Below, one piece after another: positions 2,213-57,274 of a stretch of 64,000 bases of DNA (position 1 is its first letter; each line of letters begins with the position of its first letter). Where the stretch lies: assembly GCA_949282265.1 (NCBI GenBank), contig CASDOZ010000005.1, positions 173,678 to 237,677 on the forward strand. Direction: 5' to 3'. Position numbers and translations under genes: made by a program. Below the pieces are notes generated by a model. The model was not told where the DNA came from and did not search any database. It saw nothing but the letters and a program-made list of their open reading frames with translations. Source of the stretch: an uncultured Bacteroidales bacterium. GTDB taxonomy: Bacteria > Bacteroidota > Bacteroidia > Bacteroidales > Paludibacteraceae.

Positions 2213-2644
2213 ATGAACACGAAGAAAATAATATACGGGCTTTGCCTCGTCCTGCTTCCCCTGTTATGCACAAGCTGCCTGTTCAGCGACTATCCCGTCG
2301 ATGAAGACGGGCTGCTGATAACGACCCGGGCGGAATGTTACGTCAGCAACTTCAAGCTGCTCGGCACCGACCTGCTGCCTGTCCACTTCAACGACGGCGA
2401 TGCCGTTATCGACACCGTGGAATGCAGCATACGTGTAAAAGTCAAATACGGCACAGACCTCCGGAACGTTTACCCGCAGTTCACGCTGGTAACCGATGCC
2501 AAGCTGTCGCCCAAGGTAACCGGATTCACCGACTTTTCGGACTACAAGGAGAACCCGCCGAAATACACCGTGATTTCCGGCAACCGCCAGGTACAGAAAA
2601 CATATACCATTTACATAACCGAACAGGAATACACCATTCAATAA
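2213..2644 (+). CDS. PUL-associated small lipoprotein, unknown function
   Basis: Signal peptide with lipobox (LLPLLCTSC). It lies immediately downstream of susD, the usual position of SusE/F-like surface proteins. No family was recognised. Confidence 0.65.
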   Translation: MNTKKIIYGLCLVLLPLLCTSCLFSDYPVDEDGLLITTRAECYVSNFKLLGTDLLPVHFNDGDAVIDTVECSIRVKVKYGTDLRNVYPQFTLVTDAKLSPKVTGFTDFSDYKENPPKYTVISGNRQVQKTYTIYITEQEYTIQ

Positions 2645-2656
2645 AAACAGGTAATC

Positions 2657-3661
2657 ATGAAAAAGAACATATTGTCATTTGCCGCATGCGCACTGTGCTG
2701 TATATCCATGTTGCTGTGCTCATGCCACAACGAAGAAGAAACGCCGGTTTTCCAGAACAAGTGCCTGAAACGCAGTTTGGGTCCCAACGTCTGGGGAAAT
2801 GAAATCGAATTTGCCTACGCCATGGCCATCCAGCCGGCCGCCGGCAACCTGGTCAATGCCAAAGTGGAGGCCAGCATCCCCGGGGCGGAGGGCACATGGC
2901 TGGAACACCGCTCCTACTACACGAAACTGGACGGCATCGACACGGCCATCGTGGTCGGCAATCCGTCCGTAACCGACGGCCCCATCACGCAAGTAGATTA
3001 CTGTGTGGACACATGCGCCGCCACCTTGCGCTACTACTACGTCATACCCGAAGAAGCCAAGGGCAAGCAGGTTACGTTCACGTTCTCCGCGCAGGCCACC
3101 AACGGCGAAACGGTTTCCATGAGCATGGGACCCTACGACATAGCCACCATGGACATGAAGCTCGACCTGAGCCTTTCCGCAGCCAACTGCTACATTTCCA
3201 TTGAGGACATGGCCGTTTACAACGCCGCCCAGGCCGCCGAACATCCGGAAAAGATAGACCTTGTCTACCTGTACAGGAACTACAACGTGGACACCGTCGC
3301 CTTCAACCATGCGTTTGTCGCGCCCGCCGCCGATGCGCAGAAATACCTGCCCGGCGTCACGCTGCCGGCCGGCGTGAACCGCGACACGCGGATCAGGGAC
3401 GTGGGCATCAAGGATGCGCACCTGGCACGGCTACACCTGAAAAACCCGCCCGAGGCGCAACCGGCCATCTATATTGACGACATAGACCTGCGCGACATGG
3501 ACATGTCGAACATGCCGAACTGGGCGCTCGACATTGCCACCAACGACGGCATGTTCATCGAAACCCAGGATGGGAAATACAAGGCCTATATCTACGCCAA
3601 CGAGATGAAGAAAGGCAGGGCCGGAGGAACCATCAGCATGAAACGCTACACCGTATTTTAA
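2657..3661 (+). CDS. PUL-associated lipoprotein, unknown function
   Basis: Lipoprotein signal (ISMLLCSC). It starts 13 bp after the previous gene and has coding-like composition. No family was recognised. Confidence 0.65.
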   Translation: MKKNILSFAACALCCISMLLCSCHNEEETPVFQNKCLKRSLGPNVWGNEIEFAYAMAIQPAAGNLVNAKVEASIPGAEGTWLEHRSYYTKLDGIDTAIVVGNPSVTDGPITQVDYCVDTCAATLRYYYVIPEEAKGKQVTFTFSAQATNGETVSMSMGPYDIATMDMKLDLSLSAANCYISIEDMAVYNAAQAAEHPEKIDLVYLYRNYNVDTVAFNHAFVAPAADAQKYLPGVTLPAGVNRDTRIRDVGIKDAHLARLHLKNPPEAQPAIYIDDIDLRDMDMSNMPNWALDIATNDGMFIETQDGKYKAYIYANEMKKGRAGGTISMKRYTVF

Positions 3662-3758: not shown

Positions 3759-5828
3759 ATGAATCTGTCAAACATCAAAGCCACCCTTATAGCAACCCTC
3801 TTGTCCATGGCCTGCCTATCGTGCCAGCCCGGCCGGAACGGCGGCAACAGCAAACCCGAATACCTGCACGCGCCGTTCGTGCACCCGGGCATGTTCCAGA
3901 GCCAGGCCGACCTGGACACCATGCGCCAAAACGTAGCCCGCGGCACTGAACCTTGGGCAACGGCCTGCAAACAACTGATAGCCGAAACGGACACCGCCAG
4001 ACAAATAAAGGCATACACCTGCGTATCCGTCGGGGCATACAACACCAACAGCATAGGGGGAAAAGAGTTTTCCGAAGACGCCAACGCGGCATACGCAAGC
4101 GCGCTCCTGTGGTACATAACCCAAGACCCCGCCTACGCGCGGCACGCCATCAGGATACTGGACGCATGGTCGGGCAAGCTGTGGAGTCTGGACGGGAACA
4201 ACGCCAAACTCAACATCGGCCTGTTCGGCCACAAATTCCTGAACGCCGCCGAAATACTGAAACACACCGGTTCCGGCTGGACGGAACAGAGCATGCAGCA
4301 GTTCGAGCGGATGCTGCGCACCGTGTTCTACCCCACCATCAAAGACTTCTTTGTCGAAGCCAACGGCAACTGGGACGCCTCCATGATGGCCACCATGATG
4401 TGCATGGGTGTGTTCCTGGACAACCACGACATGTTCAACCGCGCCGTGGAACGCTTCTACCGCGGCGAGGGCAACGCCGGCATCACCCGCTACATCTACC
4501 CCACCGGGCAATGCCAGGAAGCCACGCGCGACTGGGGACACGTGCAGTTGGGATTAGGCGAACTGTCCAAGGCCGCGCAGGTGGCCTGGACGCAGGGGCT
4601 GGACCTGTACGCCGCCGCCGGACACCGGCTCGCACGCGGATATGAATACACGGCGCAGTTCCTCGGCGGCGAAGAGATGCCCGCATTCGGCGACATATCC
4701 TACCGCGAACGCGGCATATCCGACATCTACACCTCCATCCATAACCATTACGCCAAGGTGAAAGGCATCCGGCTCCCGCATACCGGCGCGCTGATGGCCG
4801 CACACCCGGAGGCGGCCAAACCCCTGGGCACGCTGAGCGCCACGCGCGCATACGATAACATCGCTGGAAACGAACCAATCGGAAAGAACATACTGCCGCA
4901 GGAAGACAACATCCGGCCGGAAACGACCGGTGCATCGATGGCGGGCGGCAACAGCATACCCGCCGCGGAAAAGTTGGAAGTACTGCCTGGGGAAGACATT
5001 CAGGCGGCCATAGCCAAGGCCGGAAGCCGCTGGGTCGTGCTCAAGGAAGGGCTGCACGCCATCCGGCAGCCGCTCCGCCTGGAAAGCGGCACCAAGCTGT
5101 GCGGCGAGGGACGCAAAAGCATACTGATGTTGCAGCCGGACTGCCTCGGCCCCACCATCATCAACGCCACGGCCGACATGCACGACATCGTCTTGCAGAA
5201 CTTCGTCGTGGAGGGGGCAACCACGGCGGAAACCGGCTTCGACCCGAACTACGACCGCAGCCTGCGCCTGTGCTCGCACGCCCCGTCGCGCGAGGGCATC
5301 ATCCTGCAATCGGACTCCGTCCATAAAATGCACGGCATCACCCTGCGCAACATGACTGTGCGCAACTGCACGAAAAACGGCGTATATATTGCCGGCGCAA
5401 GGAACATCACCATAGCCCAATGCGACCTCGACAACAACGGCTCCAACGTCGTGCCCGGGCCATATTTCCACCACAACATGCACCTGAGCCACGTGGCGCA
5501 AGCCGACATAACCGGCAGCAGGTTCGACTCCTCCCTGTGGGGCGACGGGCTGCGCATCACCTTCGGCTCGGATGTGCGCATTGCCGGCAACGAGATGGCG
5601 CGCAACGCCCTGTCAGGCATCTACTGCGCGGAATCCGTCCGGATAGACATGTCGGGCAACCTCATGGAAGGCAACAATGTGGCCGGCATCTGCGTGGAGC
5701 AGCTCATGGACGCCTGCACGCAGATAAGCATCAGCGGCAACCGCATCCAGTACAACGGGCAGGCCGGCATCCGTTCCGTCGGGAACAACGGCATTGAGCG
5801 TCAGGACAACCGCGAATCCGGCAACTGA
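3759..5828 (+). CDS. Lipoprotein with an alginate-lyase-like (alpha/alpha-toroid) N-terminal domain and a right-handed parallel beta-helix C-terminal domain; candidate polysaccharide lyase
   Basis: First ATG at 3759 (the ORF opens at TTG 3750). Lipobox LSMACLSC. The N-terminal half resembles the alginate_lyase/heparinase-like fold (HPGMF..ADLD, NGNWDASMM, RDWGHVQ). The C-terminal half has repeated beta-helix turns (NCTKNGVYIAGARNITIAQCDLDNNG.., IAGNEMARNALSGIYC.., SGNRIQYNGQAGI). Confidence 0.7.
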   Translation: MNLSNIKATLIATLLSMACLSCQPGRNGGNSKPEYLHAPFVHPGMFQSQADLDTMRQNVARGTEPWATACKQLIAETDTARQIKAYTCVSVGAYNTNSIGGKEFSEDANAAYASALLWYITQDPAYARHAIRILDAWSGKLWSLDGNNAKLNIGLFGHKFLNAAEILKHTGSGWTEQSMQQFERMLRTVFYPTIKDFFVEANGNWDASMMATMMCMGVFLDNHDMFNRAVERFYRGEGNAGITRYIYPTGQCQEATRDWGHVQLGLGELSKAAQVAWTQGLDLYAAAGHRLARGYEYTAQFLGGEEMPAFGDISYRERGISDIYTSIHNHYAKVKGIRLPHTGALMAAHPEAAKPLGTLSATRAYDNIAGNEPIGKNILPQEDNIRPETTGASMAGGNSIPAAEKLEVLPGEDIQAAIAKAGSRWVVLKEGLHAIRQPLRLESGTKLCGEGRKSILMLQPDCLGPTIINATADMHDIVLQNFVVEGATTAETGFDPNYDRSLRLCSHAPSREGIILQSDSVHKMHGITLRNMTVRNCTKNGVYIAGARNITIAQCDLDNNGSNVVPGPYFHHNMHLSHVAQADITGSRFDSSLWGDGLRITFGSDVRIAGNEMARNALSGIYCAESVRIDMSGNLMEGNNVAGICVEQLMDACTQISISGNRIQYNGQAGIRSVGNNGIERQDNRESGN

Positions 5829-6649
5829 CCGGCAGGCTCTTCCGGCAAAGCCCCGTTTTCCCCTTCGGGCAATGATTCCATCCCGGCATCGGGCACAGCC
5901 GCGTCCGGCGCATCCTCCTGCGCAGCCGCGGCGCGTCCCTTGCGTTTGGCAAGGGTCACCTCGAAGTCGTGCAGGCGGTTGTTCAGCCGCCTGAACAGGT
6001 CGGCATAACGCTCCGGCCCGTACACCACGCACAGCGCGTTGAGCCGCCGCGCCAGCCCGCGGTAGCACGCCAGCAGCTCCTGCCGCGCTTTCAGCGAATC
6101 GCCCGTATGCCGCCACACGTTCTCCATGGCGCGCCGCTTGTCTGTTTCCATATACAGCCGGTGCACCCGCTCCAGCTCGTCCACCCAGGCCGTCAGCCCC
6201 AGCACCTCCACACGCGGCGCACGCGCCTCGCTGCGCATGTCCGCAATGAAATTCTCCATATAGCCGGCCTTGTCGGCCAACGGTTTGCGGTGCACGCCCT
6301 TGTAGGTGTTCACCACCGGCCGCAGCCCGCAGGCCGCCTCGCGCGCCTTTGCCTCATAGTGCCGGTAGCCCGTCCGTATGGTGCGCATAATGCCCATGAA
6401 CACGTCCGTGCGCTGCCTGTCCAGCCCGTCCAGCTGGGGCGTCAGCGCCGACCGCCCGACCACCACAATCACCTGTTCGTAGCGTTCCAGCGCGGCACAG
6501 AACGCCCCGAAGCTCTCCTCGCAATCCAGGTGCGCCGCGTCGGCCCCCTCTTGCCCGATGGCATCACGCACCTCGCAGCAAAAGGTCATGAACTCATTGT
6601 TGCGCAGCTCCCGCACCTGTCCCAACGGCCTGATCATTGTCTTTTCCAT
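5801..6649 (-). CDS. Orphan cytoplasmic protein, paralog A (282 aa, Pro/Glu/Ala-rich C-terminal tail)
   Basis: ATG at 6649 (MEKTMIRPLGQV...). The longer ORF to 6781 runs into non-coding-looking sequence. Clearly homologous to the product of 51576-52370 (shared blocks GAD, LTxQLxxLDRQR, TIR, ExLGL). No signal peptide or TM segment. Confidence 0.7.
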   Translation of the reverse strand: MEKTMIRPLGQVRELRNNEFMTFCCEVRDAIGQEGADAAHLDCEESFGAFCAALERYEQVIVVVGRSALTPQLDGLDRQRTDVFMGIMRTIRTGYRHYEAKAREAACGLRPVVNTYKGVHRKPLADKAGYMENFIADMRSEARAPRVEVLGLTAWVDELERVHRLYMETDKRRAMENVWRHTGDSLKARQELLACYRGLARRLNALCVVYGPERYADLFRRLNNRLHDFEVTLAKRKGRAAAAQEDAPDAAVPDAGMESLPEGENGALPEEPAGQLPDSRLS

Positions 6650-6802
6650 AATATAATTCGTTTGATTGGTTGTCCGCCTGTTTTTTCCGGCCGGCCTGCC
6701 CATCCGCCCGCCAATCCGTCCGCAGGCCTCCGGCCGGATGCCCGTACGTGGTTCCCGCCCATCCTGTGCCTGCGATGGCAAATATAGGCAAAAGAAAGTG
6801 AT

Positions 6803-7084
6803 ATTGCAAACAGGTAATAAATATACGACAGATTATCGAGCCATTTATTACCTAATGCAATTGATATTACCACAAATATAGAACTATCTATTACTTGACG
6901 TAACAAATAGTATAATAAACATAAAACTATTTATTACAATATGTAACAAATAGTTTCCTGAATATAGAATTATATATTACTGAATGTAATAGATTGTATT
7001 ACATATATAATCCTATTCATTACGACAGGTAATAGATAGTTTTACATATATGGATATATAAATTACTGAATGTAATAGATAGTT
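6803..7084. repeat. Tandem array of 7 units, period 42-44 bp, each with palindromic core ATTAC-N5-GTAAY followed by ARATWGT
   Basis: Cores start at 6803 (degenerate ATTGC-N6-GTAAT), 6847 (ATTAC-N5-GCAAT), 6889, 6933, 6976, 7019 and 7062. The block is very AT-rich and lies about 150-435 bp upstream of the minus-strand ATG at 6649. Confidence 0.85.
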
Positions 7085-7245
7085 CCATGAATCGGCTTAT
7101 AATAAATACGCTCTTGTGCAGACATCCTGCCCATGCAGCCATGCCCGCCATGCCATCCGGTGCAGGCTGCACCTGCCTGCCGCCATGCAGCCGCGGCTGG
7201 CGGACACCACCGCCTGCCAACCTGGCAAATAGACATAAGAAGTGG

Positions 7246-7977
7246 TTACAAGCGGTCTATAACGTAATGTTTGAACCATGAGGGAATGTACTCTATCCCA
7301 TCGGCAAGCGACATGCTCCCGGCGTTCACAGATGCCAGCAGCTTGGGTTCGGACGCGCTGTTGTCGAAAATGAACGCGCGGTCGGCCAGCCTCATGGCCT
7401 CGAGCAGCTGTTCCATGGAACGCCCATAACGTTCCGTGATTTTGTCTTCCGGCACAGAGTGCCCTCCCTGTTGCACCCGTGCGGCCACGCGCTCCTTGTT
7501 CAAGGCAGGGTTTTCCAGCGACACAAAATAGAGGTAAATGCGGTATCCCTTGCTTTTGGCAAGGCGGATATAGTCCACTTTGGAAGGATGGGACATGACG
7601 GTCTCAAAGGTGAACCGATCGCAACAGTCAAGCATTTTTTCCCGCAAATATGCCGAAAGGAAGGACGTAAAATAATCATTCACGGCAACCGGCAAGCACA
7701 AGACTGTTCCCTCAAACCGGCTTCCTGCCTTCAGGATGCCGCCATCAGCCTTGCCAAACAACGCCGATTGGGAAAACCGCGCCCAAAAATCATTCTGGTC
7801 AATAACGGGCAGATAGGTGGCAAAATCGAACCGCAACGTTTCATTGATGCCGCCTTTCAATTCGTCTGCGTTAATGTATTTGCCTAAATGGATACCCGCA
7901 TTCCTTACGATTGCAGTTATAGTCGATTTACCCGAGCCGTTGGGGCCAGCGAAAATGCGGAGGCGTTTGGTAGTCAT
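7246..7977 (-). CDS. Zeta-toxin / COG4185-type P-loop kinase (toxin candidate)
   Basis: Walker A motif FAGPNGSGKST at the N-terminus. ETVMSH and GGHSVPEDKITERY blocks are typical of the zeta-toxin/AAA_33 family. A small partner gene sits 3 nt upstream. Confidence 0.75.
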   Translation of the reverse strand: MTTKRLRIFAGPNGSGKSTITAIVRNAGIHLGKYINADELKGGINETLRFDFATYLPVIDQNDFWARFSQSALFGKADGGILKAGSRFEGTVLCLPVAVNDYFTSFLSAYLREKMLDCCDRFTFETVMSHPSKVDYIRLAKSKGYRIYLYFVSLENPALNKERVAARVQQGGHSVPEDKITERYGRSMEQLLEAMRLADRAFIFDNSASEPKLLASVNAGSMSLADGIEYIPSWFKHYVIDRL

Positions 7978-47546: not shown

Positions 47547-48629
47547 ATGCAAATAGAACTCAAGAAAATCACCGTTCGCGACCTGACGGCCGGTTATACG
47601 GACAATGCCGAGAACGGCGTATTCGGCTATGGCGGGAAATTGGACATCCGCCCGCCTTACCAACGTGAATTTATCTACAAGGAAAAACAGCGCAATGCTG
47701 TTATCGACACGGTCGTGCAGGACTTCCCGCTCAACGTCATGTATTGGGCAACACGTGAGGACGGCACGTTCGAGGTCATTGATGGCCAACAGCGCACCAT
47801 CAGCATTTGCCAATATGTCAATGGCGACTTTGCCTTCGACATGCGCTACTTCCACAACCTGCAAACCGATGAACAGGAACAAATTCTGGACTATGAACTG
47901 ATGGTTTACGTTTGCAGCGGTTCCGACAGCGAAAAGCTGCAATGGTTCAGAACCATCAACATTGCCGGGGAAAAACTTACCGAACAAGAATTGCGCAACG
48001 CCGTATATTCCGGCCCGTGGGTGAGCGATGCCAAACGCTATTTCAGCAAGAACGGTTGCGCGGCATACGGCATGGCAAGCAAATACATGAGCGGTTCCCC
48101 TATCCGCCAAGACTATCTGGAAACGGCCATCGACTGGCTCTCTGGCGGAAACATAGAAGTGTATATGGCCAACCACCAACACGATGCAAACGCCAATGAA
48201 CTATGGCTTTATTTTACATCTGTCATTAATTGGGTGAAAATACTTTTTCCAAAATACCGGCGCGAGATGCAGAGCGTCCAATGGGGATTCCTATACAACA
48301 AACTAAAATCCAAGCCATTTGATGCCAATTCTTTGGAACAGCAGGTAGCCAAACTAATGAGTGACGACGATGTAACAAAAAAATCAGGCATCTACGAATA
48401 TGTACTCACCGGCAACGAACGCGCCTTGAACATCCGCGCTTTTACGGACAACATGAAACGCGAAGCCTATGAACGGCAACAAGGAAAATGCCCGTTGTGC
48501 AACGGGCATTTTGAGCTTTCAGCCATGGAGGCCGACCACATAACGCCTTGGCATGCCGGCGGCAAAACCATAGCCGGGAACTGCCAAATGCTCTGCCGCG
48601 ACTGCAACCGCCGGAAATCGGGAAAATAA
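47547..48629 (+). CDS. DUF262 (ParB/GmrSD-N-like) domain fused to a C-terminal HNH nuclease
   Basis: DUF262 signatures RPPYQREFIY and VIDGQQRT. The C-terminal HNH reads CPLCNGHF...ADHITPWHAGG...NCQMLCRDCNRRKSGK. It starts 6 nt after the methylase stop. Confidence 0.75.
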   Translation: MQIELKKITVRDLTAGYTDNAENGVFGYGGKLDIRPPYQREFIYKEKQRNAVIDTVVQDFPLNVMYWATREDGTFEVIDGQQRTISICQYVNGDFAFDMRYFHNLQTDEQEQILDYELMVYVCSGSDSEKLQWFRTINIAGEKLTEQELRNAVYSGPWVSDAKRYFSKNGCAAYGMASKYMSGSPIRQDYLETAIDWLSGGNIEVYMANHQHDANANELWLYFTSVINWVKILFPKYRREMQSVQWGFLYNKLKSKPFDANSLEQQVAKLMSDDDVTKKSGIYEYVLTGNERALNIRAFTDNMKREAYERQQGKCPLCNGHFELSAMEADHITPWHAGGKTIAGNCQMLCRDCNRRKSGK

Positions 48630-48670: not shown

Positions 48671-50014
48671 TCATTTGCAGAAACTGCAACTGTCGCACTT
48701 GCTGCCTTCGCCGCGCAGACGTTTCTCCACCAGCAGGCGGATGCGTTCTTTCAGCACATCGACGCGGATATTCTCAATGACATCGTGCACGAAGGCGAAC
48801 ATCAGCAGCAGCCTGGCTTCCTGCTCCGAAATGCCGCGTTGGCGCATGTAGAACAAAGCCGATTCGTCCAGCTGGCCGGTAGTGGCTCCGTGCGAGCACT
48901 TCACGTCATCGGCATAGATTTCCAACTGCGGCTTGGTGCGGATACGGGCGGTCGGCGACAGCAGGATATTGCGGTTGGTCTGGTAGGCAGCCGTTTTCTG
49001 AGCATCTGGTGCCACCTTGAGCAGGCCGTTGAACACGCCCATCGAATTTTCTTCCAGAATATATTTGAACAACTCGTTGCTGCGGCAACCGGGCCGGTTG
49101 TGCATAATGGCCGTCGTGTTGTCTATCAGCTGGTGGCGGCCGCCTACGGTCATGCCGCACAGCATTGTGTCGCAATCTTCGCCGTCCAGGTCAATCTGGA
49201 CCGTGTTGCGCGTAATGCCGTTGTGCAGGGTGATGATATTGGCCAACAGGTTGGAGCCGGCCTGTTGCTGCACGAGCAGCGAACAAATATTGCACATGTT
49301 TTCCGACGTGCTTTCCAGCTTGTAGTGTTCATAGTTGGCATGTGCCCCGAGGAAAACCTCCGTGGTGCGCGTCGAGCAGAAGCGCGCGCCTCCCATTGCG
49401 TGGTCGCACACCAGCAGCTTGGCGGACGCACCCTCTTCCAGCACAATCAGGTTGTGGCTGTTCGCCATAAGGTCGGCATCGGAACGCATGATGTTGACCA
49501 GCTGCACCGGCCGGTCGAGCGTTACACCGGCAGGCACGTACATGAAGAAGCCATCCTGCGCAAACGCGCCGTTAAACGCGACAAACGGGTCGTCCTTGCG
49601 CTCCGCGAGCCTGGACAGGTAGGGTTCCACCAGTTCGGGACGTTCTTCGGAAACCTGTTTGAGGCTGCCAATGATCACTCCGGCGGGCAACTGCTGGGCG
49701 GCTGTCCGTGCATCGGAATAGAACATGTCGTTCACGACAAAATACATGTAGGACTGTATGCCCGGCACATCGCAATGGAACACCTCATACGGATTGACCG
49801 GAAACGCCAGGCGGTTCAGGTTCAGGCCGTAGTCCACGGCAAACACATCACCGAAATCCGTATGGCGGTAGCTTTCCGTGCGGCGCGTCGGGAAACCGCT
49901 GCGGCAAAAACGTTCAAAGAACATGTCGCGGGCGGCATTGAGCGCCGGCGCAGCATTGTTTTTCAGCGTTTCCGCGTATTGTCCGTACAGGTCTATGTAA
50001 GTCTGCTCATTCAT
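48671..50014 (-). CDS. sufD: Fe-S cluster assembly protein SufD
   Basis: 447 aa with C-terminal [29 protein letters not shown]. Overlaps the sufC stop by 4 nt. Confidence 0.9.
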
Positions 50015-50772
50015 ACCGTTTCCTGCTTAATCCAGTCGTAGCCTTTTTCTTCCAGTTCGAGTGCCAGCTCCTTGGTGCCCGTCTTGACGATGCGCCCATC
50101 GTACAGGATATGCACGAAATCAGGAACAATATAATCCAGCAGGCGCTGGTAGTGCGTAATGACAATGCTTGCGTTGTCGGGCGTCTTCAGCTTGTTCACG
50201 CCGTTGGCCACGATACGCAACGCATCGATGTCGAGGCCGGAGTCCGTCTCGTCCAGGATGGACAGCTTCGGCTCGAGCATGGCCATTTGGAATATCTCGT
50301 TGCGTTTTTTCTCGCCGCCGGAAAAGCCCTCGTTCACCGAGCGGTTGGTCAGCTTGTTGTCCATTTCGACCAGTTCCTTTTTCTCGCGCATCAGCCGCAG
50401 GAAATCGGAAGCCGACAACGGCGGCAGGTTGTTGTGCTTGCGGTGTTCGTTCACGGCCGCCCGCATGAAATTGACCATGCTGACGCCGGGTATCTCCACC
50501 GGGTATTGAAAACTCAGGAATATGCCTTCGCGGGCACGCACCTCGGGCGGCATGTCCAGCAGGTTCTTGCCGTTGAACGTAACGCTTCCTTCCGTAACGG
50601 TGAAAGCCGGATGGCCGGTCAGCACCGACGACAAAGTCGATTTGCCGGCGCCGTTCGGGCCCATTATGGCATGTACCTCGCCCGCGTTCACGGTCAGGTT
50701 CACGCCCTTCAATATCTCCTTGCCGTTGATGGCGGCATGCAGGTTTCGTATTTCCAACATCATAGTTTTCAT
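50011..50772 (-). CDS. sufC: Fe-S cluster assembly ATPase SufC
   Basis: LEIRNLHA...GPNGAGKST...[11 protein letters not shown]...[14 protein letters not shown]. Start taken at ATG 50772 (the ORF opens at 50796). Confidence 0.92.
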
Positions 50773-51127
50773 GTACTTTTTACAATTCAGGCGCAAAAAT
50801 AATCATTTTTTTCCGAGCACGAAGCATTCCGATGTCCCTTTGTGATAATTCCGCCCGGCAATGCCGCCACGCCGCCACGGCAAAGCAGACAAAACGGGCG
50901 AGAAGCCACTCAAGGCCAGATGGCTCATGGGCACGCGGAAAGAAAGCGGCAGTAAATAAAGCAGCAAGAACCGGAAGCCCAGAACCAGAACAAAGGCACA
51001 GCGACCTAAGGCAGGAAATCCATAAGGGAAAGTCCAGACCGAAAAACCAAATAACGGAGAACATGGTTTATTTTGAACCTTTCAGACATTATATTTATTC
51101 ATAGCTTATTTGGATATACACAATTGT

Positions 51128-51379
51128 TATTTATCCATAAACAATATGATATTGCACATACGCAAGTAGTATTTATCTATAAACAATATCATATTGCGTG
51201 TACGCAAGTAGTATTTATCTATAAACAATATCCTATTGCGTGTACGCAAGTAGTATTTATCCGAAAACAATGTCCTATTGCGTGCACGCAAGCAGTATTT
51301 ATCTATAAACAATGTCATATTGTGCTTGCGCAAGCAGCATTTATCTGCAAACAATGTCCTATTGTGTCTGCGCAAGTAT
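51128..51379. repeat. Tandem array of six exact 42-bp-period units (plus degenerate flanking copies), each with two palindromes
   Basis: Units at 51128, 51170, 51212, 51254, 51296 and 51338. Consensus TATTTATCTATAAACAATRTCMTATTGCGTGYACGCAAGYAG. It contains TTTAT-CT-ATAAA and TTGCG-N4-CGCAA (the unit at 51254 carries the perfect 14-nt palindrome TTGCGTGCACGCAA). Degenerate echoes occur at about 51086-51127 and 51380-51440. Confidence 0.9.
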
Positions 51380-51575
51380 ATTTTATAGAAAAACAAAGCC
51401 AACTTATGCTTATATGCTTATAGTATATGCATAAACAATTTACTTTTTACATAATCCGGATATAATTTATTGTTTGCAGCTTAAATCATGCGTATATAAA
51501 ATTAAAATTCATATATTTGCAGGGAAAACATTATATGCCAAACAGGATTTGCCCATCCTTAACAACCAAACAGCC

Positions 51576-52370
51576 ATGAGAACTGTCACAAACATCCGAA
51601 AAATCGACTTGGGGCATTTGAACCTGAGCGAATACACCAACTTCATGAACCGCGTGCTGGCACTGGTAAACGCAAGCGGTGCAGACAAACTTGGCATTGC
51701 CACGGACGAACTCGCGGCCTTCCAGACCGATGTGGAACTGCTCAACAAACTGCTGAAACAGTCGCAGGCCAACGAGCTGACCATCCAGCTCAGGCAACTT
51801 GACCGGCAGCGCAAAAGCATGATGACCTACATAGCCGGCACCATCCGGAACAGCGCACAGCTACCCATGAAGTCCATGCGGCAGGCCGGACAAGCATTGA
51901 AACTGCCCTTGAAGCCCTACGTGGGCATCGCGCGGCAACCCGCGCAGCAACGGACGGCACAAATCAACAGCCTGCTCCGCGACCTGGGCGGCGACATGGC
52001 AACCCACATGGAAACGCTCGGGCTGTCCGACATGGCAGAGCACTTGCAGCAAACCAACGACTTGTATGCCACGATGACCGACCGGCGCACAGCCACCGAA
52101 GCCGCCAGCCGGCTCGAAAGCAGCCCATCGGCACGGCCGCGCATCAACCTCGAATATGACACGCTCGCACAGATAGCCTTCGCCACCAACCTGCTCCACC
52201 CCACGGCAGAAACGGCCGCCTTTGTGCGCGACCTGAACGCCACCATAGCCGAAACCAAAGCACGCTACAACCTGCGCAAGGCACAAGCCGCTACCGCGGA
52301 AGAACCGGACAGCAGGCCACAGGACAGCACACCAAACACCACCGAAACGGTGGAAACGGCAGAAATATAA
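51576..52370 (+). CDS. Orphan cytoplasmic protein, paralog B (264 aa, acidic/Thr/Pro-rich tail)
   Basis: ATG at 51576 (MRTVTNIRKIDLG...). Homologous to the product of 5801-6649. No signal peptide or TM segment. Confidence 0.7.
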   Translation: MRTVTNIRKIDLGHLNLSEYTNFMNRVLALVNASGADKLGIATDELAAFQTDVELLNKLLKQSQANELTIQLRQLDRQRKSMMTYIAGTIRNSAQLPMKSMRQAGQALKLPLKPYVGIARQPAQQRTAQINSLLRDLGGDMATHMETLGLSDMAEHLQQTNDLYATMTDRRTATEAASRLESSPSARPRINLEYDTLAQIAFATNLLHPTAETAAFVRDLNATIAETKARYNLRKAQAATAEEPDSRPQDSTPNTTETVETAEI

Positions 52371-57203: not shown

Positions 57204-57274
57204 TTGTCTCACGAGGATTCGAACCTCGACAGACAGTACCAAAAACTGTAGTGCTACCATTACACCATGAGACA
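57204..57274 (-). tRNA. tRNA-Gln (anticodon UUG)
   Basis: Hand-folded cloverleaf on the minus strand. Acceptor TGTCTCA/TGAGACA (U1:A72). D-arm GGTGTAATGGTAGCAC. Anticodon stem ACAGT/ACTGT with loop TTTTGGT. T-arm CGAGG-TTCGAAT-CCTCG. Discriminator A. CCA is not encoded. Confidence 0.85.

Follow-up and report, generated by a model that had tools for sequence, protein, structure and literature searches.

We analysed a stretch of 64,000 nucleotides (hereafter the window) from contig CASDOZ010000005.1 of an uncultured Bacteroidales bacterium of the Paludibacteraceae. In this window an 812-bp intergenic region separates sufC, which lies on the minus strand with its ATG at 50763, from a gene of the DUF6261 protein family. 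The region holds a tandem array of 42-bp units, called array 2 here, and an element of the same kind, array 1, lies beside a paralogous DUF6261 gene elsewhere in the window. We report that such an array is an element belonging to the DUF6261 gene family, and we found no earlier description of the class. The features of the region, which include comparison with the orthologous locus L005, are the following.

51128..51379, plus strand: array 2, six units of 42 bp each, consensus TATTTATCTATAAACAATGTCCTATTGCGTGTACGCAAGTAG (Tandem Repeats Finder and in-register print)
51086..51127, plus strand: degenerate unit on the gene-distal side of array 2 (register print), 100% conserved in L005
51380..51421, plus strand: degenerate unit on the gene-proximal side of array 2, beginning ATTTTATAGAAAAACAAAGCC (register print)
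51152..51165, unstranded: dyad of unit 1, TTGCACATACGCAA, one A.C mismatch
51194..51207, unstranded: dyad of unit 2, TTGCGTGTACGCAA
51236..51249, unstranded: dyad of unit 3, TTGCGTGTACGCAA
51278..51291, unstranded: dyad of unit 4, TTGCGTGCACGCAA, a perfect 14-bp palindrome
51320..51333, unstranded: dyad of unit 5, TTGTGCTTGCGCAA, T.G mismatch
51362..51375, unstranded: dyad of unit 6, TTGTGTCTGCGCAA, T.G mismatch
51512..51519, plus strand: candidate Bacteroidetes -7 box TATATTTG for the DUF6261 gene, an exact match to TAnnTTTG (motif only)
51576..52370, plus strand: DUF6261 gene, 264 aa (Pfam PF19775, E 1.8e-33), the conserved partner of array 2
50794..50801, minus strand: candidate -7 box TATTTTTG of the divergent sufC, marking the far limit of the intergenic region that both genes share

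Tandem Repeats Finder placed array 2 at 51128-51383, with a period of 42, 6.1 copies, 86% matches, 0% indels and a score of 316, and the in-register print put the unit starts at 51128, 51170, 51212, 51254, 51296 and 51338, with weak degenerate copies starting at 51086 and 51380. A first-pass annotation of this DNA had described six exact units at these starts with degenerate copies on both sides. We saw the same starts and flanking copies, and the period is indeed exact, but the sequences differ from unit to unit. Every unit contains TTGCG-N4-CGCAA, in places with one mismatch, and this dyad is perfect in the unit at 51254 and mismatched in units 5 and 6, as had been described. The pattern TTGYGNNNNCGCAA matched eight times in the window, every time within array 2, whereas 1.06 matches were expected in the shuffled window and eight were reached in 0 of 100 shuffles. 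The second, AT-rich dyad of the annotation (TTTAT-CT-ATAAA) is also present, with both arms intact in four of the six units. The oriented spacer that follows the TTGCG-N4-CGCAA dyad includes ATAAACAATGTCC. From the end of the array to the DUF6261 ATG at 51576 we measured 196 bp, close to the 200 bp given previously, and the candidate -7 box, which is kept in L005, stands in this interval 133 bp past the last full unit and 57 bp ahead of the ATG.

Several other identities were considered for array 2 and rejected. It is not a CRISPR (clustered regularly interspaced short palindromic repeats) array, which would consist of repeats with unique spacers: the entire 42-bp unit repeats, the "spacer" part included (86% matches), and unique spacers were not seen. 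A promoter in every unit was discarded because no TAnnTTTG box lies within the units, and an array of terminators because the stems are 5 bp long here and the U-rich side changes strand between subfamilies. The open reading frame (ORF) of 14-codon periodicity at 51073-51423 had already been judged an artefact; the period is 41 or 43 bp in homologous arrays, so a coding role of the array is excluded, and similar ORFs are miscalled elsewhere. Rfam gave no match to the array (the five arrays scanned produced chance-level matches only, E 0.13 and 0.39), and over the window a tRNA alone passed the gathering threshold.

The second array in the window and its gene are arranged in the same way.

6874..7088, minus strand: array 1, five 43-bp units with the dyad TATTAC-N5-GTAATA, the same kind of element as array 2
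5801..6649, minus strand: paralogous DUF6261 gene, 282 aa (Pfam E 3.1e-28)
6779..6786, minus strand: candidate -7 box TATATTTG between array 1 and the gene (motif match), with TTTG in the -33 region

Array 1 stops 225 bp upstream of its gene, and the 43-bp array is kept at the orthologous loci L001 and L002, whose proteins are 92% and 84% identical to the paralog. The two DUF6261 proteins of the window share 27% identity with each other. The dyads of these two same-genome arrays differ (TATTAC-N5-GTAATA vs TTGCG-N4-CGCAA), and each is confined to its own array within the 64-kb window, an observation that speaks for a locus-specific partner rather than one shared regulator. The genes near array 1 are zeta-toxin-like and alginate-lyase-like. 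The zeta-toxin-like gene lies just upstream of the array and is preceded by a 77-aa ORF (window 7246-7977); the pair is conserved at L001 (1479-2447) and L002 (251-1219) and could be a toxin-antitoxin system unconnected with array 1.

The DUF6261 family proved to be large. A word-indexed protein search returned just 2-6 relatives per paralog, and the family size was taken from an exhaustive HMMER search (E<=1e-3), which gave 1147 clusters at 50% identity. Related loci were collected by a single-protein search of genome contigs, which yielded one ortholog (L005), and by a subfamily-alignment search of metagenome contigs, which yielded ten loci; linkage was counted over the 20 independent DUF6261 loci whose flanks were long enough. 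A tandem array of 2-16 copies adjoins the gene in 19 of these 20, the period being 41 bp in five loci, 42 bp in 13 and 43 bp in one, and L004 is the sole locus without one. Conserved linkage to the paralog family, on whose failure the first-pass annotation would have withdrawn its proposal, is thus what we found.

The array is upstream of the gene at array 2 and at 16 other independent loci. Besides both window loci, these comprise eight distant members taken from the protein database (L006-L010, L012, L018 and L019; 20-26% identical to the window protein), in which arrays of 41-42 bp and 3.7-9 copies end 34-110 bp ahead of the ATG; six further metagenomic loci (L020, L021/L022, L023, L025 and L026); L032, which is Prevotella nigrescens FDAARGOS_1486 (NZ_CP082843.1), with a 41-bp array of 3.6 copies; and L024, the degenerate array of which was detected only under relaxed settings. 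The orientation of the array relative to the gene is constant, the downstream arrays of two loci (L028 and L029, see below) included, and the gene neighbours are different at every locus. Conversely, in the 180 kb of DNA examined each array of period 41-43 adjoins a DUF6261 gene. If the class is defined by a period of 41-43 bp, a unit made of a dyad and an oriented spacer, and a co-oriented position beside a PF19775 gene, array 2 shows all of these properties. The DUF6261 gene and its array probably work together. The module does not appear to be phage-borne: a search of viral contigs with the two-unit pattern CTTGC-N10-GCAAG gave two unrelated matches only. One viral contig, L031 (IMG/VR UViG_3300027754_000211), holds at 1483-1726 a true coding 42-bp repeat with a 14-aa unit in a tail-fibre-like region, which is unrelated.

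Some further observations concern annotation and other repeats at these loci. Gene callers place false ORFs over such arrays (L008 and L018, and the start chosen by PGAP in L032): in L032 the annotated DUF6261 coding sequence (CDS; 2339-3292) begins inside the 41-bp array (2208-2406), the likely true ATG being at 2478. At 1689-2084 the same locus has 3.3 copies of a 120-bp tandem repeat, 98% identical, which are annotated as a hypothetical CDS. Other tandem arrays occur in L020 (2924-3687) and L021 (3-445), with 4.6 and 4.9 copies of a 69-bp unit and 4.8 copies of a 93-bp unit. In L031 a 3.1-kb stretch is almost free of ORFs under translation table 11, which suggests that this phage uses a reassigned stop codon.

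Across loci the unit follows one plan, a single dyad of 12-24 bp and then an oriented spacer. Most dyads read (C)TTGC...GCAA(G), the arms being 5-10 bp and the centre 2-8 bp long, and the spacer is A/C-rich on the sense strand of the gene (CAAAC..GAAAC..AAACAGAC). Beyond period, orientation and this plan the arrays share little, their sequences having diverged between loci. Outer TTGC/GCAA half-sites are retained even where the interior is non-palindromic (L007, L019 and L028). In L012 (1776-2052) the units hold GCGA / TCGC / GCGA(A), the middle segment of which can pair with either neighbour; alternative hairpins of this type were not seen in the other arrays. Within arrays, indels amount to 0-1% in most cases vs 9-28% for mismatches. 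That the period stays at 41-43 bp while the sequences diverge fits selection on spacing, as the first-pass annotation had proposed from the strict phasing. Since the repeat length is close to four turns of B-DNA (about 42 bp), the dyads would face one side of the helix.

The closest comparison is with L005. This ortholog of array 2 comes from the genome bin of an uncultured member of the Bacteroidales (CALUNA010000008.1), encodes a 98% identical protein and likewise has six units. Whereas the flanks are 95.6-96.9% and the gene 98.7% identical, the array is 84% identical, so that it changes about four times faster than its flanks, with homogenisation within the array. The changes are unevenly distributed: differences per site are highest in the dyad centre (0.375), 0.07-0.17 in the arms and 0.03-0.045 in the flanks, and the lowest value inside the array belongs to the right arm of the dyad (0.067). 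AAACAAT and GCAAG are nearly invariant. The AT-rich dyad is mostly broken in L005, AAACAAT alone being kept. Nor does the gradient of degeneration toward the gene, on which the annotation had remarked, recur in L005, where the gene-proximal units are perfect and the middle ones decayed. Several short-read contigs begin inside or just past the array.

The reading that we favour, tentatively and as a little short of an even chance, is that array 2 is a DNA element lying upstream of the promoter, in which locus-specific sites for a dimer are arrayed in helical phase, and that the binder may be DUF6261 itself. Array 2 would then be a cis-acting partner element of the adjacent DUF6261 gene, in which each unit supplies one palindromic site (TTGCG-N4-CGCAA) followed by the oriented spacer. 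As double-stranded DNA the array would form a phased row of sites for a dimeric, locus-specific protein, and from its place upstream of the core promoter this row could either control DUF6261 or assemble a nucleoprotein complex there. The placement relies on the TAnnTTTG motif, found by match between array and ATG at both window loci, L001 and L005; a -7 box in this position would put the array upstream of the promoter, and no such box reads into array 2. By analogy with SopB on sopC or ParR on parC, the DUF6261 protein may bind its own array. It would be the most economical binder, because it is the sole gene conserved beside the arrays and because the dyads of the paralogs differ; no conserved regulator gene was seen near the DUF6261 loci. 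In favour of a reading as DNA we also count the family-wide linkage and the steady period, the outer half-sites that persist around non-palindromic interiors, the conserved dyad arms, the stems and strands that show no sign of an RNA (see below), the lack of a terminator ahead of the gene, and the array of L029. The latter is separated from its gene by 345 bp that include a terminator-like hairpin, and it abuts the 3' end of a convergent gene, so the element is not simply a 5' leader. The AlphaFold2 model of the protein is all-helical, with eight helices and a predicted local distance difference test (pLDDT) score of 90, and a short basic helix stands at the C terminus.

Several observations weigh against this reading. 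The protein offers little that resembles a DNA binder: DUF6261 is its sole Pfam domain and no nucleic-acid-binding domain was found, Foldseek gave no match at E<0.08 against PDB and BFVD, and the family is mostly acidic (median isoelectric point 5.6). Searches of NCBIfam, PHROGs, PADLOC and the PDB sequence profile were likewise without significant match. The position of the array is not always that of an operator either. In L028 and L029, members of a distant 217-aa subfamily, it lies downstream of the gene, which speaks against a pure promoter-operator. L010 has a canonical promoter motif 46 bp upstream of the array and none after it, and in most main-subfamily loci the promoter could not be placed from sequence. 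The spacer is strand-asymmetric and the orientation of the array fixed, and depending on the locus the outer half-sites are N6 to N10 apart and the loops measure 2-8 nt. Such variable half-site spacing is unusual for one DNA-binding fold and more typical of hairpins. Finally, L021 (991-1166) and L022 (501-1166), whose flanks are 97-99% identical, have 4 vs 16 units, so that the number of sites is not tightly constrained, unless the difference is an assembly error. The constancy of copy number that the annotation had expected therefore holds between the window and L005 but not in this pair.

More broadly, DUF6261 and its private array might be the two halves of a new module, with the protein recognising its own array either as DNA or as processed RNA, a possibility that we regard as doubtful but worth stating. 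In its DNA version this would be a chromosomal, ParA-less nucleoprotein complex like that of sopC, or a self-titrating switch; in its RNA version, a new analogue of type III toxin-antitoxin or abortive-infection systems with a helical protein. An RNA partner taken as an explanation on its own, which we consider unlikely, would require that the array be transcribed in sense and that the 42-nt unit, a hairpin plus a CA-rich linker, be bound or processed by DUF6261, in a type III toxin-antitoxin-like or other ribonucleoprotein module or, in a milder variant, as a 5' leader controlling mRNA stability or translation. The combination of a tandem array and a lone gene with no other conserved neighbour agrees with the definition of type III systems (PMC5086642). 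The fixed orientation and the A/C-rich sense-strand spacers would also suit an RNA, as would the stems of 5-10 bp with loops of 2-8 nt and their compensatory arm changes (TTGCACA/TGTGCAA vs TTGCAGA/TCTGCAA in L010, CCGA/TCGG vs CGGA/TCCG in L022), the promoter motif ahead of the L010 array, the short distance of 34-110 bp from main-subfamily arrays to the ATG and the paralog-specific arrays, which would match cognate RNA-protein pairs. However, among 482 stem positions we counted 455 Watson-Crick pairs, 11 G.T and 12 A.C mismatches, so there is no wobble bias favouring either strand, and folding is equally good for both strands of array 2 (z-scores -4.9 and -4.6). The -7 boxes of the window stand downstream of the arrays and none reads in. 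No terminator-like site is present at 51380-51575 or between array 1 and its gene, and no evident terminator separates array and gene in the main-subfamily loci. The helical DUF6261 is unrelated to ToxN, CptN and TenpN and without a PADLOC match, the arrays of L028 and L029 lie downstream of the gene, and Rfam is silent.

Two further explanations dispense with a dedicated partner of this kind, and both seem to us improbable, the second even more so. An ancestral operator or hairpin beside DUF6261 could expand and contract by slippage and unequal recombination, as a minisatellite whose unit number and DNA shape tune the promoter (a contingency locus) or do nothing, with no dedicated multi-site binder. 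The spread of 2-16 copies across loci and of 4 vs 16 in near-identical strains, the roughly fourfold faster evolution with homogenisation inside the array, the array-less L004 and the frequent contig breaks at the array would all follow from such turnover. What it leaves unaccounted for is that period, unit plan and orientation are the same in 19 of 20 very divergent independent loci, that dyad arms are conserved relative to loops, that indels are rare amid many substitutions and that the window and L005 both have six units. Alternatively, one trans-acting factor of the Bacteroidales host, for example of the CRP/FNR type (TTG-N8-CAA), could bind all arrays cooperatively, so that the DUF6261 genes would make up one regulon. 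The outer TTGC...GCAA motif common to many arrays speaks for a shared factor, and TTGCG-N4-CGCAA has what we take to be the 5-N4-5 geometry of FNR-type boxes. On the other hand, arrays of the same genome differ in core and spacing, the half-site spacing ranges from N6 to N10, neither dyad occurs elsewhere in the 64-kb window and no conserved regulator gene is nearby.

Among known systems, the plasmid partition loci come closest to the phased row of protein-binding sites that we favour. The sopC centromere of the F plasmid, which is bound by SopB, consists of 12 direct 43-bp repeats, each with a 16-bp inverted repeat (PMC3177203). The DUF6261 arrays resemble it in having tandem units of 41-43 bp in helical phase with one 12-24-bp inverted repeat each, a variable copy number and a position beside the gene of the presumed binder (mostly upstream; downstream, as in sop, in L028 and L029); phased units with one dyad each, one of the marks of a partition locus, are thus present. 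They differ in that no ParA or ParB gene is nearby (neither a ParA-type ATPase nor a ParB-type binding protein is encoded beside array 1 or array 2), that the protein has no ParB or helix-turn-helix domain, and that the loci are chromosomal, sometimes several per genome with different dyads, the binding being predicted here. With parC/ParR (R1, pSK41) and the omega operators they share a phased array directly upstream of the presumed promoter of the putative binder's gene, and would share a specificity for the cognate locus. In those systems tandem operators with units of 7-20 bp lie upstream of an autoregulated operon and are bound by ribbon-helix-helix proteins, whereas the DUF6261 arrays have 42-bp units and a 250-aa helical bundle as the candidate binder. 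Replication iterons, likewise phased direct repeats beside the gene of a cognate protein whose specificity can diverge between paralogs, measure about 17-22 bp and are found at origins with AT-rich and DnaA-box elements; the DUF6261 arrays occupy ordinary chromosomal contexts and their protein has no Rep-like domain.

Type III toxin-antitoxin families (ToxIN, CptIN and TenpIN) have been reported from Firmicutes, Fusobacteria, Proteobacteria and Archaea (PMC5086642). The likeness to them lies in short direct repeats of similar unit length and family- and locus-specific sequence beside a lone protein gene. The DUF6261 loci, however, have no Rho-independent terminator between array and gene, the promoter motif in the window comes after the array, and neither a ToxN fold nor a G.U signature is seen; terminator and toxin fold, two defining features of type III systems, are both missing. 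The BrickBuilt elements of Porphyromonas gingivalis have 23-nt units, a leader and a tail, and terminal inverted repeats, and a genome holds 19 similar copies next to unrelated genes (PMC4596501). They too are intergenic tandem repeats of Bacteroidales with variable copy number and false ORF calls, but the units of the DUF6261 arrays are 41-43 bp long with a dyad inside, and each array is unique to its locus and tied to one gene family. The BrickBuilt identity was rejected on the grounds of its 23-nt units and lack of gene linkage, the two window arrays moreover being unrelated in sequence. The literature searched held nothing on the DUF6261 family (the sole paper with the name deals with daptomycin resistance in Streptococcus, another subject), and we found nothing in it on 42-bp repeats in Bacteroides or on type III toxin-antitoxin systems in Bacteroidetes.

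The surroundings of array 2 contain sufC/sufD and a pectinesterase-like gene. The sufC and sufD-like genes, both on the minus strand, occupy 48671-50763 and lack a sufB immediately upstream, and the DUF6261 module presumably sits where sufB usually stands in Bacteroidales suf operons. Between the sufC promoter and array 2 there is a GC-rich non-coding block (50802-51085); the upstream flank as a whole (50764-51127) is 95.6% identical to L005. Two ORFs in this part, 50780-51064 (minus) and 50832-51104 (plus), are probably not genes and were rejected as such, their nonsynonymous:synonymous changes relative to L005 being 9:2 and 11:1. About 3 kb from array 2, the product of a gene at 47547-48629 combines an N-terminal GmrSD domain with an HNH nuclease domain and is likely a restriction enzyme dependent on modified DNA. 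The tRNA gene at 57204-57274 on the minus strand is the window's sole Rfam match at the gathering threshold.

A near-universal, co-oriented array of fixed period provides the first concrete and testable handle on the DUF6261 family. The module occurs widely among the Bacteroidales, which are dominant in the human gut and mouth. If the pairing of protein and array is true, it would represent a new class of self-contained protein-repeat modules in these dominant gut and oral bacteria, and it would also account for annotation artefacts, such as the ORFs called over arrays and the N-terminally extended CDS of P. nigrescens, as well as for assembly breaks. If the array is instead only a variable upstream enhancer, it would still be a clear case of selection for helical phasing in the poorly understood promoter regions of Bacteroidetes.

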